DNA of 64,000 bases, from NCBI GenBank assembly GCA_022799315.1, contig JAAWOE010000003.1, forward strand, positions 5,139-69,138. The letters run 5' to 3'. Made by a program: the position numbers and the translations under genes. Below, in pieces: positions 19,377-26,317 of the stretch. Below the pieces are notes generated by a model, which was not told where the DNA came from, searched no databases, and was given only the letters and a program-made list of their open reading frames with translations. Source of the DNA: Clostridia bacterium. Its GTDB lineage: Bacteria > Bacillota > Clostridia > TANB77 > CAG-508. Position 1 is the first letter of the stretch. Every line of letters begins with the position of its first letter.

Positions 19377-20582
19377 TTATACATGCTTTTTCTTTTTCAA
19401 ATCATTTGTTTTTTTATTCATATCATTAAGTTGTAAGTCTAGCCTATGATCTTTAATTTTTTGCACACATATATATATTACCCAACTGTCCAAGAAAATT
19501 CCCATAGCTATTGCTCCACCTATTCCATTGCTAAATAGTGTTGATAAAGTCATAATTAATACTATTGCAATTATTGCGTAATCTATATAAATTCTAATTT
19601 GTGTGAATTTACTTTTAGCATTTATTACTGTATTTTGTCTATCTATTTTCTTATTTTCTTTATTGATGAATTTATTAGTAGTTTCCCTTGAAGTATTGAT
19701 AAAGTCTGGAGTTACCGTTTCAATTTCAGAAACAATATTTTTAATTTCATCTATTGAATCGATTGTCATTGCATTTGTTTTATGTAAGGTAGCATTTAAT
19801 ATATTTGTACCATAATTACTTGTTATTCTCCTATATTGGCACTCTAAAATTCCATCACGCGTAATTCTCTCAAATCCAACCAATTTATATGTATCTGGGT
19901 AAAAATGTCCTTGATATGGATTGCTATCATATTGTGTTGTAAAACCAGGTATATCAAATTTTTTATTAATTAATTCTTGTATCCAAGCTTTTGCAACTGT
20001 ATCAGATATAGATTTTATTTCGTCATAAAATTCATTTAATTTTTTTGTCATTTCTTCAAGTTCTTTTTCTTCTGATTTTACTTTTTCATTTAATCCTAGA
20101 TATTTGTCTAAATCTTCTTTATATTCAGAAAGTCCTATATCAACGATATTATCATCATCAATCTTTTTGGCTCTCTCATAATTATTTATAATTTCGTCAA
20201 ACATGCTCCAACCAGTGTAATCAGTTATATTTGAGGTATTTTCATCAAATTCTCTTTGTTTAAATAGTTCAATGTCAATTTTTATTAATTCTATATAGGC
20301 TTCAACATCTAAAGAATCATCAGCAATAATCTCTTTTATAATTTTTTTAGCAGTATCATATTCTTCAAGTTTTACATGTTTTTTTGCTTGTTCTAATTTG
20401 GAATTTCTTCCTTTTATTCCATCAACTTCAACTTTTCCTGAAATCTCTAATTTGTATTTTTCTATTGCTTCTTCTATTACTACTTGACTTCCACAATATT
20501 GACATATTGTATTCTCCAATTTATCATTTACTTGAATATTTGCACCACAATTAGGGCATTTTGCATCTTTTAATTTTACCAT
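19377..20582 (-). CDS. Zinc-ribbon protein with a helical-repeat middle region and C-terminal TM helices (YdjG-like, tentative)
   Basis: N-terminal CPNCG..x17..CQYCG, a TPR-like/coiled region and two C-terminal TM helices. It is the last gene of the operon. Confidence 0.6.
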   Translation of the reverse strand: MVKLKDAKCPNCGANIQVNDKLENTICQYCGSQVVIEEAIEKYKLEISGKVEVDGIKGRNSKLEQAKKHVKLEEYDTAKKIIKEIIADDSLDVEAYIELIKIDIELFKQREFDENTSNITDYTGWSMFDEIINNYERAKKIDDDNIVDIGLSEYKEDLDKYLGLNEKVKSEEKELEEMTKKLNEFYDEIKSISDTVAKAWIQELINKKFDIPGFTTQYDSNPYQGHFYPDTYKLVGFERITRDGILECQYRRITSNYGTNILNATLHKTNAMTIDSIDEIKNIVSEIETVTPDFINTSRETTNKFINKENKKIDRQNTVINAKSKFTQIRIYIDYAIIAIVLIMTLSTLFSNGIGGAIAMGIFLDSWVIYICVQKIKDHRLDLQLNDMNKKTNDLKKKKHV

Positions 20583-20664
20583 TTTTACTCCTCCTATTAA
20601 TAAGATATTTATAAATATCTTTATTTATTTTATTTTTTTAATTTTAATAACATATTTTTAAGTT

Positions 20665-21327
20665 TTAATTCATTTGATTTCTTTTTATTACTAAATTATG
20701 TATTTTATTTACTTGCTCATCTAATAGGTTATATGCTCCATTTTGAATATTATATTCTATAATAGCAATAGCCTGTAAAATATCGTTATCAACTTGTGTT
20801 GTGTCTTCATTTATATTAACTTTGCTACTTTTTACATCATCATATGCTTTTTCTATTTTTTTATACACTTCTTTATTTGTTACTGTTTTTAGTATCATAT
20901 CTAATCTACTACACATATCATTAACTTTATTATACTTTCTTTTATCTTCATTTAATGACGTTTCTGCTGAATTATTCGCTATTGTATTTGAAGCAAGTAT
21001 AATTATGAATAGTCCTAATAATATAACTTGTGTTACTATTGTAATTGTTATATTTTTCAAATTACAAATTATAAATAATGTACTTATTATAAATGTTATT
21101 GTAGAATATGATCCCACAATTGGTAATCTTGAATAGTTCATAAATTTATATTCTGTTTTTCCAAACATAATTGAAAAGAATAATGTTACCATTACTGATA
21201 AATTTAAACATCCTATATTAATCCATCTTGCTGTTGTAAAATCTTTTACTGATACAAACACAACAACATTAACTAATATCAAAGCAATAATTCCTATGAT
21301 TCCAAATAGTATTTTATTATTTTTCAT
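20665..21327 (-). CDS. Multi-pass membrane protein with a C-terminal helical domain (YdjH-like position, tentative)
   Basis: The start ATG 21327-21325 overlaps the upstream TAA (TAATG). The product has 4-5 TM helices. Confidence 0.6.
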   Translation of the reverse strand: MKNNKILFGIIGIIALILVNVVVFVSVKDFTTARWINIGCLNLSVMVTLFFSIMFGKTEYKFMNYSRLPIVGSYSTITFIISTLFIICNLKNITITIVTQVILLGLFIIILASNTIANNSAETSLNEDKRKYNKVNDMCSRLDMILKTVTNKEVYKKIEKAYDDVKSSKVNINEDTTQVDNDILQAIAIIEYNIQNGAYNLLDEQVNKIHNLVIKRNQMN

Positions 21328-23645: not shown

Positions 23646-23647
23646 TT

Positions 23648-26317
23648 TTACCTCCTTTTATATTCATTACTTATAGTTTGATTACTAGCTTCTTTTGAAA
23701 ATGGTATTTTTGTATTATAAATAATTTTTCTTAGAAGTTGTATTTTTGTACAACATATTAGTTGTTTTGTTGTTCTATCTCCTGCATATTCTTGTACCTT
23801 ATTTGGTATTTCTTTATATACTTCTACTAATTTACTTCTGTCTTTACTTTGTTCATTAAAACTTTCATTAAATATTCTCTTTGCATATTCTTCGGCTTCT
23901 GCCTTTAACATATAATTGCAACCTTCATTACAGCAATCTGTGCAACCACACTGTATAAATGGCTTTAATTTATCTTTTTTATCATTCCAATAAGTTGTCT
24001 TTTCTGCTATTTCGCCATCACTTATTGTTGTTCTTATTTGAACTTTCTTTCTGTAATCTTCTGTTATAACTTCTTCTGGTTCTTCTAGTCCATTCATATA
24101 GAAAAATGCCTCACCTGGTCGTAGCTTTGCAAGTCTTTCAACTTGTATATCCTTCATGTCCGTACTATCTCCTAATATTGTTCTGTCATTTTTCTCTACT
24201 AAGTTAAACGCTAGTTTTATATTAGTTAGTTTTACTACATCTGTGGTTACTTTTTCTGGAGATTGGTCTGCTATAACGATACCTACACCTAACGATCTTA
24301 TCTCTGCTAACATTCTTGTTAATAGTTTTTTTGCAACAGCACTAGGATTAGCTTCACCTTCTGATTTGTCATTTCCTGCTGCTAAAAGTACATGTGCTTC
24401 TTCTAATAAGATTACATTCTTCATTTCTCCAGTCCCTAAGAAATTTGCATTTACATATGATTGTATGTTTAACAATAACAATGCTATTAATAAAGATTTT
24501 TGGTCTTCATTTTCTATTGCAGCAAGTTCTATAATTGTAGGTTTCTTTAATAAATCCTCTATTGGAATTGTATTATAATTTCCAAACAACCTTAATAAAC
24601 TTTTGAATCTTACATAACCTGCTTTTCCAATATTAGCAGCATCTCCTCTATATCCTATTCTTTCAAACACTTCCATAAACGTTTTCAAAAAGTCATCCAT
24701 TGTAAAAATTTCTGCTCCATCATCTATTGTGTAATGTGGCAACCATCCTGCTTTTGAATAGCACTCATCTAATGTGTCTTCAAAAATTTTATCTAATGGT
24801 GTCCCCATTGACACTCCAGCTGAAAAAGCTGTTTTTAATACTGTTTTATAGCTTTGCAATCTAACATTCTTAGGTGGTATAAACGGATTTAATATATATG
24901 GTGATATAAAATCCTTTCCTGGTGTAAACACTTGTATATCTGGTATGCTATCTATCATTGCTCTATATTCATTCTTAGCTGGCTCAATTACTAAAAATGG
25001 AATATTGTGTTCTTTCCATAATCTATCTAATAAACTTACAGAAAATGTTGTTTTACCAGATCCAGGTGTTCCAACCACTAGCATGTGCTTTGTTAAATCA
25101 CCTAACGAAAATCCTATTTTATCATCATTTGTAGAACTTTTTAATGTTCCAACCATAATGTCGCCCATATTTATTACTTTTTTATTATAACTTTTTGAAG
25201 CTATATCTGATTTATTTATTTTTACCCCCGCTGTTAATACGTTATCTCCATATGGTATTCTAAAAAATTCACTTGCTTCTTCTCCTGTAATTATGAAAGG
25301 AAGTCTTCCAAGTTCTGAATTAGTACATATTGGATTTTGCATATTTTTATCAATCACTATTTCATTTATAACCCAAGGCAATGAATTAAAATATGTATTT
25401 ATATCTATTTCATAATTATTTATTTCCATACTGTTTAATTTGGCATATTCATTGTCCATTCCTAAACTTAACTCACCTGTAAGTCTATTGGTTATTGTAT
25501 TTATATAGTTATAATCAGCACATATTAAGATATTAAATGAAAATAAAACCCCATATTTATTAGTTTCATAATATTTATATATTGTTGATGGCTTTTCCGC
25601 TAAAATGTTAGCACTTGCTCCTTCTGGTCCTGCAACACCTTTGGATATTACATCTAATACATTACTATATGATTCTATATTAGCAATTTCGTTTTGATTA
25701 AGTAATGTTGGAATCAAATCGATTATTATTTCACAATCTGGATATTGCATTAAAGTTGTAATTATTTTGGTAAAATTTTCACTTTTAGTTGGAAATTTAT
25801 CAAATGTAAAACATTCTTGTAAATACATACTTTGAAGATTATTCATTTGATAATCTTTTATTATTACTCTTTTTTCTTTGTTTGCTTTATCCTTTATTTC
25901 TTCAATTATTTCTTTTTCATTACTAATTTCATTAACACCATATTTGCTACCTTTTAATGATGCTTTTATTGAATTTTCTAGTTCACTTAATTTGAATTGT
26001 AAATATTCTTCGTTTTCATTGATTCCTCTAATTAATATATATGTTTTTATATTTGCATTATAAGTTTGATTTTCTACCTTTTCAGATTTAAAAACTAATG
26101 ATAATGAATAATCTTGGTTTTGATATTGTGTATTAAAATCTTGCTTACATCCAAAGAAAAATTCTGTAATTAGTGATTCAAATTCTTTTTTATGTTTCTT
26201 GCTAAATTCTTTATTTTCTAATCCATCTTTTACTAATATGGAAATATCAGGTACTTCTGTTATTTCTAAAATATGTATTCCATTAAATTCTCCACTTTCT
26301 AGCTCAGTAATTAACAT
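23648..26317 (-). CDS. HerA/FtsK-clade P-loop ATPase (DUF87-like) with a ~400-aa uncharacterised N-terminal region and a Cys-rich C-terminus
   Basis: Walker A VVGTPGSGKTT, LVIEPAKNEY, Walker B VILLEEAHVLL and IVIADQSPEKV. The C-terminal cluster is CGCTDCCNEGC. Confidence 0.75.
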   Translation of the reverse strand: MLITELESGEFNGIHILEITEVPDISILVKDGLENKEFSKKHKKEFESLITEFFFGCKQDFNTQYQNQDYSLSLVFKSEKVENQTYNANIKTYILIRGINENEEYLQFKLSELENSIKASLKGSKYGVNEISNEKEIIEEIKDKANKEKRVIIKDYQMNNLQSMYLQECFTFDKFPTKSENFTKIITTLMQYPDCEIIIDLIPTLLNQNEIANIESYSNVLDVISKGVAGPEGASANILAEKPSTIYKYYETNKYGVLFSFNILICADYNYINTITNRLTGELSLGMDNEYAKLNSMEINNYEIDINTYFNSLPWVINEIVIDKNMQNPICTNSELGRLPFIITGEEASEFFRIPYGDNVLTAGVKINKSDIASKSYNKKVINMGDIMVGTLKSSTNDDKIGFSLGDLTKHMLVVGTPGSGKTTFSVSLLDRLWKEHNIPFLVIEPAKNEYRAMIDSIPDIQVFTPGKDFISPYILNPFIPPKNVRLQSYKTVLKTAFSAGVSMGTPLDKIFEDTLDECYSKAGWLPHYTIDDGAEIFTMDDFLKTFMEVFERIGYRGDAANIGKAGYVRFKSLLRLFGNYNTIPIEDLLKKPTIIELAAIENEDQKSLLIALLLLNIQSYVNANFLGTGEMKNVILLEEAHVLLAAGNDKSEGEANPSAVAKKLLTRMLAEIRSLGVGIVIADQSPEKVTTDVVKLTNIKLAFNLVEKNDRTILGDSTDMKDIQVERLAKLRPGEAFFYMNGLEEPEEVITEDYRKKVQIRTTISDGEIAEKTTYWNDKKDKLKPFIQCGCTDCCNEGCNYMLKAEAEEYAKRIFNESFNEQSKDRSKLVEVYKEIPNKVQEYAGDRTTKQLICCTKIQLLRKIIYNTKIPFSKEASNQTISNEYKRR

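Follow-up and report, generated by a model that had tools for sequence, protein, structure and literature searches.

What an ATPase resembling DNA pumps does when it is encoded together with an extremely acidic repeat protein and a set of membrane-associated proteins is the question raised by a five-gene operon of a Clostridia bacterium (GTDB lineage Bacteria; Bacillota; Clostridia; TANB77; CAG-508). The operon lies in a stretch of 64,000 nucleotides (assembly GCA_022799315.1, contig JAAWOE010000003.1, positions 5,139 to 69,138 of the forward strand), which is referred to here as the window and is numbered from its first letter. With regard to identity and composition, the five genes constitute a genuine operon, which is very probably one copy of a widespread, horizontally moving cassette. 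The best reading of its function, put forward tentatively, is that of a membrane-docked motor acting on proteins with a polyacidic leader. The components of the window copy are the following (aa, amino acids):

23648-26317, minus strand: gene 1, a VirB4/HerA-like P-loop ATPase of 889 aa
22547-23645, minus strand: gene 2, a hyper-acidic repeat protein, with a +1 frame break at about 23237 in this assembly
21327-22511, minus strand: gene 3, a soluble SPFH protein of 394 aa of the Band_7_1/YdjI type, with two C-terminal zinc ribbons
20665-21327, minus strand: gene 4, a four-transmembrane protein of 220 aa, counted from the ATG of the TAATG overlap
19377-20582, minus strand: gene 5, a protein of 401 aa with an N-terminal zinc ribbon, a helical/TPR-like region and two C-terminal transmembrane helices
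26318-26600, minus strand: the 5' leader of the operon, with an extended -10, an upstream open reading frame (uORF), a (CA)11 tract and a hairpin plus T run

Conservation, variants and mobility of the cassette

An earlier examination made from the letters alone (the sequence-only reading) had let its proposal depend on the ATPase and the SPFH gene being neighbours in other genomes too, and they are neighbours throughout. Homologues of gene 1 are abundant, with more than 1,800 full-length proteins of about 890 aa, and a scan of one genome per species yielded at least 579 loci with the ATPase. Open reading frames (ORFs) were called in 87 loci, a profile was built for each neighbour family, and neighbourhoods were counted in the 40 species loci whose flanks reach 3 kb or more upstream and 6 kb or more downstream. 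An SPFH gene adjoins the ATPase in all 40, which come from at least nine phyla; the SPFH gene is followed by a gene for a four-transmembrane protein (family TM220) in 38, a zinc-ribbon-TPR gene is present in 31, and a strongly acidic ORF stands directly after the ATPase in 31. The usual order is (zinc-ribbon-TPR) (UP2) (YidD-like) ATPase (transmembrane paralogues) acidic protein (small ORF) SPFH four-transmembrane protein, and the clade of the window has lost the UP2 and YidD-like genes as well as the payload domains described below. The window copy itself has the compact layout that had been read from the letters, since ORF calls and a terminator scan agree on a co-directional, tightly packed operon with terminator-like hairpins at both ends (five terminator-like sites in the 8-kb region scanned, against 1.2 expected). 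The two junctions pointed out in that reading are equally real: the ribosome-binding site of gene 2, AGGAGG, is built from the last two arginine codons of gene 1, with the ATG of gene 2 placed 2 nt after the TAA, and in the TAATG at the next junction but one the start of gene 4 overlaps the stop of gene 3, sharing one A.

Several variant arrangements accompany this common plan. Bacteroidales carry in the zinc-ribbon position a different zinc-ribbon protein of about 360 aa with two transmembrane helices. In Bacteroidales and Akkermansiaceae copies (L038, L047, L049, L053, L054, L060, L063 and L075) this protein, which consists of an N-terminal zinc ribbon, an unassigned middle domain and C-terminal transmembrane helices, is encoded by the gene after the four-transmembrane gene, that is, in the position of gene 5. 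A deep-branching ATPase clade (L081, L082, L086, L087) has a rearranged order, namely SPFH, four-transmembrane protein, a protein of about 660 aa, ATPase and acidic toxin. Up to five tandem multi-transmembrane paralogues of about 185 aa can lie between the ATPase and the acidic protein (L041, 12700-15800; L004, 12692-13779; L033), and YidD-like proteins with an N-terminal transmembrane extension precede the ATPase in nine of the 40 loci.

The distribution of the cassette is that of an accessory element. The ATPase tree mixes phyla, with at least five changes forced by supported branches for Bacillota, and the ATPases of Treponema, Planctomycetaceae and Akkermansiaceae nest among those of Clostridia or Bacteroidota; bin contamination could account for some of this mixing, not for all of it. 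Among 151 genomes sampled from the order of the host, the ATPase occurs in one. In a congener (G113) the site is empty: the orthologues of the ABC exporter (79% identity) and of the YcxB-like gene (47% identity) that flank the cassette are neighbours there, with 74 nt and only one hairpin separating them. The window therefore holds a 7.4-kb accessory insertion, from about 19326 to 26823, and the YcxB-like gene, whose orthologue is found at the empty site, is a flank gene. A kinship of this gene with the UP2 family or with a 167-aa ORF beside locus L007 was considered and discarded, as the matches were only at the level of transmembrane helices. The edges of the insertion are marked as follows:

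26678-26702, minus strand: upstream terminator that ends the ABC-exporter gene (11-bp stem, 5 GC pairs, T run); upstream edge of the cassette
19291-19325, both strands: bidirectional terminator (16-bp stem) common to the convergent YcxB-like gene; downstream edge of the cassette
18788-19291, plus strand: YcxB-like gene, convergent flank gene

The surroundings of other copies were surveyed with Pfam in 144 flanking ORFs of more than 70 loci, with attention to the 25 most frequent of the 158 families matched. Five tyrosine integrases and three resolvases were found among otherwise ordinary genes; one copy (L004) adjoins an integrative conjugative element, and a phage database gave only two unannotated faecal contigs with partial matches to the ATPase core. 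As far as sequence and occurrence indicate, the cassette is an accessory element that moves between genomes.

The ATPase and its acidic partner

In the protein encoded by gene 1, a VirB4-N-domain-like region (residues 1-380) is followed by the ATPase core (about 385-760) and by C-terminal helices that carry a four-cysteine cluster. The motifs VVGTPGSGKTT, VILLEEAHVLL, ADQSPEKV and CGCTDCCNEGC, on which the earlier assignment to the HerA/FtsK clade had been based, can all be located in the translation, and the assignment itself is borne out by a Pfam match to the DUF87/HerA central domain (PF01935; 50.8 bits against a gathering cut-off of 23.2, E 3e-13). In an alignment of 40 sequences, G416-T423 (Walker A), K422, E640, R674, D684 and Q685 are invariant, and C790, C796, C800 and C856 are at least 90% conserved. 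The Walker A motif, the Walker B acidic pair, the arginine, the DQ sensor and the above-threshold score place the protein in the FtsK-HerA superfamily/DUF87, and HerA (PDB 4d2i) is matched both in a profile search and by fold. HerA equivalogs of NCBIfam reach 27-30 bits against cut-offs of 800-970, and the N-domain matches VirB4 and not the HAS-barrel of HerA proper (DSB-repair or anti-phage HerA, about 500-600 aa), which leaves gene 1 outside that group; neither Pfam nor PADLOC finds a NurA, SIR2 or DUF4297 partner in the window operon. The best NCBIfam match is the DNA-translocating ATPase CedD (E 6.5e-22, far under its cut-off). With its catalytic residues intact, gene 1 apparently encodes an active motor of the VirB4/HerA type.

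The first 380 residues, which the sequence-only reading had been unable to place, have a fold like that of the VirB4 N-domain, as judged from structural models. An AlphaFold (AF2) model of the full protein (predicted local distance difference test, pLDDT, 86.4) finds its best fold match, over the full length, in TrwK/VirB4 of the R388 type IV secretion system (8rtd_O, E 7e-17), followed by HerA, DndH-C, the SIR2-HerA and DUF4297-HerA complexes and the VirB4 C-domain. Modelled alone (pLDDT 89.5, predicted template modelling score 0.90), residues 1-380 give first 12 fold matches that are all TrwK/VirB4 (E 2e-7 to 1.5e-4, TMq 0.40-0.49). A profile of this domain matched only 332 clusters among 1.84 billion representatives, every one of them the start of a protein of about 860-945 aa or a fragment of such a protein, and none of the five proteins of the operon matches CagE_TrbE_VirB or AAA_10, the VirB4 families of Pfam. 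It follows from the fold match, the lack of a VirB4 family match and a profile restricted to its own family that the resemblance to VirB4 is one of fold and not of family membership.

The acidic protein that follows the ATPase turns out to be the variable part of the cassette, a polymorphic and often toxin-bearing partner of the ATPase and not a side feature. Nearly every copy starts with M-[DE]-[DE]-E-[FY] followed by D/E/S/T-rich repeats, the common leader in relatives being MDEEF plus D/E-rich repeats. BLAST clustering of the C-terminal 260-aa pieces of complete acidic proteins resolves them into many unrelated groups, among which Pfam recognises WHH/colicin-DNase, Endonuclea_NS_2, TNT NADase, Peptidase_C39_2 and papain-fold glutamine amidase (Gln_amidase) domains; several HExxH groups and a ParB-like motif were recognised by eye only. 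Exchangeable C-terminal toxin domains on a constant leader are thus a feature of the cassette family, not of gene 2 in the window. The clade of the window has the shortest acidic proteins (67-527 aa), in which the leader is retained together with a DDF-x-x-L-R motif and an acidic tail at the C-terminus. Behind every type of peptidase, NADase or amidase payload stands a small ORF specific to that type (loci L009, L017, L023, L029, L035, L041, L065 and others), and acidic-leader genes stand in tandem in L022, L048 and L067. The Priestia megaterium plasmid pN447-3.1 (L097, 7299-13772) encodes a diverged ATPase of 963 aa (33% identity) followed by an acidic repeat protein of 1135 aa, with no SPFH gene nearby, and because it has just this pair it suggests that the ATPase and the acidic protein are the minimal unit. 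The presence of toxin-bearing acidic partners shifts the likely role of the cassette from envelope-stress handling to a conflict or protein-handling system.

Gene 2 of the window had been described as one extremely acidic tandem-repeat gene. The repeats and the acidity are there (a leader MEEDF, two repeats of about 47 aa, 48-bp/16-aa EDTTEDTDNEDIETES repeats, a basic patch, a DDF-MxxIQ motif and a C-terminal DDEDDPII; 48-bp unit x 4.2 and 141-bp unit x 1.8 by Tandem Repeats Finder), but in this sequence they do not form a single ORF. One frame runs from 23645 to 23211, encodes 144 aa and ends at a TGA (23213-23211), and the 16-aa acidic repeats are encoded in the +1 frame, which is open at 23236-22547 and has no start codon before 22921. 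Eight other conspecific contigs (L089-L096) bear an identical ATPase. Gene 2 is intact in L089 (367 aa) and L091 (527 aa), which have 2 and 12 repeats, respectively, whereas L090 and L092 have runs of N within the repeats and L093-L096 stop inside the gene. The window gene lacks a unique segment of about 128 nt that the intact conspecific genes contain, being joined straight into the repeat array, and both frames are matched by the 109-aa homologue of L008, the closest relative. Because conspecific genes are intact and the segment is absent here, the break is, on the comparison of these sequences, a repeat collapse or deletion and not the biology of the species, and gene 2 appears as a single gene with a strain-variable number of repeats. 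No toxin domain was found in it by Pfam or by comparison with the homologue and the conspecific genes. Programmed frameshifting or CGGN recoding was rejected, as none of the five genes contains an in-frame CGG and the break coincides with the segment of about 128 nt present in the intact genes.

Expression of the cassette may itself be subject to switching. The leader contains an extended -10 (tgtTATAAT, at about 26563-26555) and a uORF that begins with an ATG at 26517 and runs through the (CA)11 tract (26487-26466). A strong hairpin with a T run (26406-26356; -28.7 kcal/mol, z = -7.7 against shuffles) lies directly before the ribosome-binding site of the ATPase gene. In six conspecific assemblies the leader is identical except for the number of CA units, which is 11, 11, 11, 12, 13 and 15. 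When computed for each length, the uORF has 47-49 codons and ends 31 nt inside the hairpin if n is 12 or 15, and stops 40-54 nt before the hairpin if n is 10, 11, 13 or 14. Because the tract varies while the rest of the leader does not, and because the uORF reaches the hairpin only at n = 12 or 15, the leader is a candidate phase-variable attenuator, which would work as a slipped-strand switch through leader-peptide-dependent anti-termination. The number of CA units would set the frame of the leader peptide, and only one frame would bring the ribosome into the terminator hairpin, melting it before the ATPase gene. With n = 11, the window would be in the attenuated ('off') frame.

The SPFH protein and its membrane partners

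Gene 3 had been taken for an SPFH protein of the Bacillus subtilis YdjI type with two zinc ribbons, and the Pfam matches leave this identification in place (PF13421, Band_7_1, E 1.4e-41; Zn_Ribbon_1 twice; DZR). It is the sole Band_7_1 gene of the host genome, a family that the same search also detected in the B. subtilis control genome. The architecture described for YdjI/SamI unites a Band_7_1 domain with a low-complexity linker and a zinc finger at the C-terminus and has no transmembrane helix (PMC8581546; PMC13713150), and in gene 3 the Band_7_1 domain, a low-complexity linker and C-terminal zinc ribbons are likewise combined with the absence of transmembrane helices. Hydropathy predicts none in gene 1 either, four in gene 4 and two, C-terminal, in gene 5. 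Gene 4 ends in a cytoplasmic helical tail of about 110 aa and matches no Pfam family above threshold, the TPM domain included. Gene 5 has a CPNCG...CQYCG motif, a weak zinc-ribbon match in Pfam and transmembrane helices at about 330-372. Its profile also retrieves all 56 zinc-ribbon-TPR proteins of about 197 aa that precede the ATPase in other loci, and in the nearest relatives (L008, L014-L016) forms of about 400 aa lie downstream of TM220 as they do in the window; by these sequence features, gene 5 belongs to the zinc-ribbon-TPR family of the cassette, as a long member that is anchored in the membrane. Apart from the weak zinc ribbon of gene 5, no family in Pfam, NCBIfam or PADLOC was found for genes 2, 4 and 5, the small ORFs of relatives, UP2 or TMa.

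The sequence-only reading had compared genes 3 to 5 with the ydjG-ydjH-ydjI module that recruits PspA to the membrane, while remarking that no pspA was present. PspA (PF04012) is indeed missing, and not from the operon only: it is absent from the host genome, which is 95% complete, in a search that was positive in nine of 14 control genomes. The resemblance to the module holds for gene 3. SamH/YdjH is defined by an extracellular TPM domain (PMC13713150), and an identification of gene 4, which has none, with YdjH was rejected; gene 5 shares with YdjG only a zinc ribbon and its combination with transmembrane helices, the Pfam zinc-ribbon matches being weak. Like the PspA-YdjGHI (SamGHI) system, the cassette encodes two membrane proteins with the SPFH protein, one of them with a cytoplasmic zinc ribbon. 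Unlike that system, it couples them to an ATPase and an acidic protein, has no PspA, has a four-transmembrane partner without TPM and is, in the window, accessory and not part of a σW-type stress regulon. Because of the missing TPM domain and the absence of PspA, the analogy is limited to a soluble SPFH protein that would be held at the membrane by two membrane partners.

Mechanism and competing explanations

In the mechanism that we tentatively favour, which is suggested by domain content and modelled folds and is somewhat less than probable, ATP hydrolysis would drive the translocation or export of the acidic protein. A soluble ATPase hexamer would dock on a membrane platform made of the four-transmembrane protein and the two-transmembrane zinc-ribbon-TPR protein and organised by an SPFH oligomer. 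The ATPase would use ATP to engage the polyanionic, DNA-like leader as a substrate, and the acidic protein would most likely be threaded as far as the cytoplasmic membrane or across it, with its leader perhaps gripped by the zinc ribbons, which are positively charged. In relatives, the enzyme domain that the leader carries (nuclease, NADase or peptidase) would be delivered or activated in this way, whereas in the window copy the leader protein alone would be handled, with no toxin payload. That all this amounts to an unrecognised protein-translocation pathway, with a VirB4-like hexamer derived from a DNA pump, recognition of a DNA-mimic leader, an SPFH-caged platform, a leader that doubles as nuclease inhibitor and a dinucleotide-repeat attenuator switch, is rather unlikely as a complete scheme. 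A close parallel for the export of swappable toxins is type VIIb secretion (EssC with LXG toxins), in which, as in relatives of the window cassette, a constant N-terminus carries exchangeable toxins (WHH, NucA-like, TNT, papain-like, zincins), small genes specific to the toxin type come next, and a pumping ATPase of the FtsK/HerA superfamily is encoded nearby (PMC3482391). However, the cassette has no WXG100/LXG proteins, no EssC-type multi-domain ATPase and no EsaA/EssA/EssB, its leader is an acidic repeat region, about half of its copies (that of the window included) are toxin-free, and it occurs in monoderm and diderm hosts.

Several observations weigh against a motor that translocates the acidic protein. 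No pore-forming or outer-membrane component is evident in the cassette, Bacteroidales and Akkermansiaceae copies included, and the cassette is unchanged in diderm phyla such as Bacteroidota, Spirochaetota, Planctomycetota and Verrucomicrobiota, where it offers no outer-membrane route. SPFH proteins are not known as parts of secretion systems. The fold similarity of gene 1 to VirB4 is moderate (TM about 0.4-0.5) and, as said, stops short of a VirB4 family match. About half of the complete acidic proteins, including those of the whole sub-clade of the window, have no recognisable toxin domain, so that toxin delivery cannot be the core function. Because no small downstream ORF matches a known Pfam or immunity family, their role in immunity can only be inferred, and five nuclease-type payloads (WHH, Endonuclea_NS_2, ParB-like; L030, L032, L059, L073, L081) have no small ORF before the SPFH gene at all; the polyacidic leader might itself inhibit nuclease payloads by mimicking DNA, and the lack of an immunity ORF would then be accounted for. 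Finally, with gene 2 broken and the (CA)11 tract predicted to be off, the window copy may be silent.

Some of the same facts are accommodated by an intracellular conflict function, which corresponds to one half of the sequence-only guess at a membrane-stress or abortive-infection system. An abortive-infection or defence role is rather unlikely. The ATPase ring would sense or load on invading DNA, the DNA-like leader would until then occupy the motor or mask the effector, and infection would displace it; displacement would free the toxin, or, in payload-free forms, the SPFH and transmembrane module would perturb the membrane. Such a role is in keeping with the structural neighbours of gene 1, among the best of which are SIR2-HerA and DUF4297-HerA, established anti-phage systems with swappable adjacent effectors, and with the match of its core to the HerA/mad8 models of PADLOC. 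The accessory and mobile nature of the cassette and the missing outer-membrane route in diderm hosts point the same way, and nuclease payloads without immunity genes fit inhibition in cis by a DNA-mimic leader better than toxin-immunity pairs. With HerA-effector systems (SIR2-HerA/Nezha, DUF4297-HerA) and archaeal HerA-NurA the cassette shares the DUF87 clade, an adjacent gene bearing exchangeable effectors and an accessory, mobile character; unlike them, it has effectors with a long polyacidic leader and obligatory membrane and SPFH partners. The two checks that the sequence-only reading had proposed in this direction came out negative. Defence-system models (PADLOC-DB v2) gave only partial matches to the ATPase core (mad8, 2e-15, and HerA models), with no match for genes 2, 3 and 5 and a chance-level one for gene 4 (DpdC, E 0.005), so that none of genes 2-5 has a meaningful match. 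The flank tally showed a weak mobile-element signal and no enrichment of defence genes, with little restriction-modification, CRISPR or Abi content among mostly housekeeping neighbours. Moreover, the N-domain of gene 1 is VirB4-like and not the HAS-barrel of defence HerAs, and the payload types (TNT, Tox-PL1 glutamine amidase, C39-like, WHH, NucA-like), together with type-specific small genes, are a hallmark of exported polymorphic toxins (PMC3482391).

A different kind of objection to a working translocation motor is that the window copy is decaying or locked off, with gene 2 truly frameshifted. The frame break, the predicted attenuation at (CA)11 and the loss of payload, UP2 and YidD-like genes in this clade would agree with decay. 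It is nonetheless quite unlikely: genes 1, 3, 4 and 5 show no damage, many conspecific contigs carry an ATPase with 100% identity, conspecific assemblies with an intact gene 2 exist, and it is precisely within the repeats that contigs end or have N gaps, which suggests a fault of assembly.

Improbable, too, is a DNA-handling machine derived from conjugation or DNA uptake (a VirB4/Ced-like translocase), in which the acidic proteins would be co-transferred DNA mimics, of an anti-restriction or polyvalent-protein-like kind, instead of the substrate. The VirB4-like fold of gene 1, its below-cut-off match to CedD, the abundance of zinc ribbons in the partner proteins and the conjugative element next to L004 are compatible with this possibility, as are the peptidase and ParB-like domains, since domains of these kinds are also reported for the polyvalent proteins that conjugative elements encode (PMC5512222). 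Comparison with VirB4 itself (TrwK of R388, PDB 8rtd/7o42; VirB4 C-domain 4ag5) reveals the same two-domain build of about 800-900 aa with an N-domain and a P-loop fold, and the gene 1 protein, being soluble, would likewise be expected to dock on small membrane partners. In contrast to VirB4, gene 1 has an extra C-terminal helical region with a four-cysteine cluster, and its partners are the SPFH, four-transmembrane and zinc-ribbon-TPR proteins. The cassette has no VirB3/6/8/10, and the window copy is without a relaxase, a coupling protein, a VirB6/B8 homologue and a pilus gene; no such families are among the 25 most frequent in the flanks; and the cassette, with its 7.4 kb, is complete in itself.

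An envelope-stress module of the PspA-YdjGHI type, as first proposed, in which the SPFH protein would recruit a repair factor and the ATPase would replace PspA, is very improbable: the YdjI/SamI architecture of gene 3 (PMC8581546; PMC13713150) and its two membrane partners, one with a cytoplasmic zinc ribbon, speak for it, but neither operon nor genome has PspA, gene 4 lacks the domain that defines YdjH/SamH, relatives bear toxin payloads, and absence from 150 of 151 genomes of the order together with insertion between conserved genes is atypical of a housekeeping stress system.

Returning to the membrane-docked motor, the cassette may give bacteria a novel means of protein handling or export. 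No published description of the combination of ATPase, acidic protein and SPFH protein was found in the searchable literature, which agrees with the earlier remark that no described pairing of a HerA-like ATPase with an SPFH scaffold was known. If the cassette moves acidic-leader proteins, it would constitute a new secretion or toxin-delivery route common to many gut anaerobes of unrelated phyla, and true export would mean that a DNA pump has been put to work on a protein substrate that resembles DNA. An intracellular function would make the cassette a new immune system linked to the membrane, with effectors that can be exchanged. In both cases the cassette would provide the first functional context for YdjI-type SPFH proteins outside the Psp system, for a large family of unannotated ATPases of about 890 aa and for hyper-acidic proteins, which annotation pipelines pass over or cut into pieces. 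The cassette is testable because cultured carriers exist, namely Ruminococcus albus AR67, Bengtsoniella intestinalis BP47G, Faecalicatena contorta ET55, Fretibacterium fastidiosum SGP1, Modestobacter lapidis DSM 100206 and Paludibacter sp. 221, with the Priestia megaterium plasmid offering the minimal pair as an experimental handle.

Two minor observations concern the flanks of the window copy. Beyond the YcxB-like gene, an ABC-exporter pair at 14725-18325 has no orthologue in the congener G113 (best identity 28%), which indicates that a second insertion or deletion adjoins the cassette. On the other side, the upstream ABC exporter at 28805-31256 is split into two ORFs, 29382-31256 and 28805-29299.

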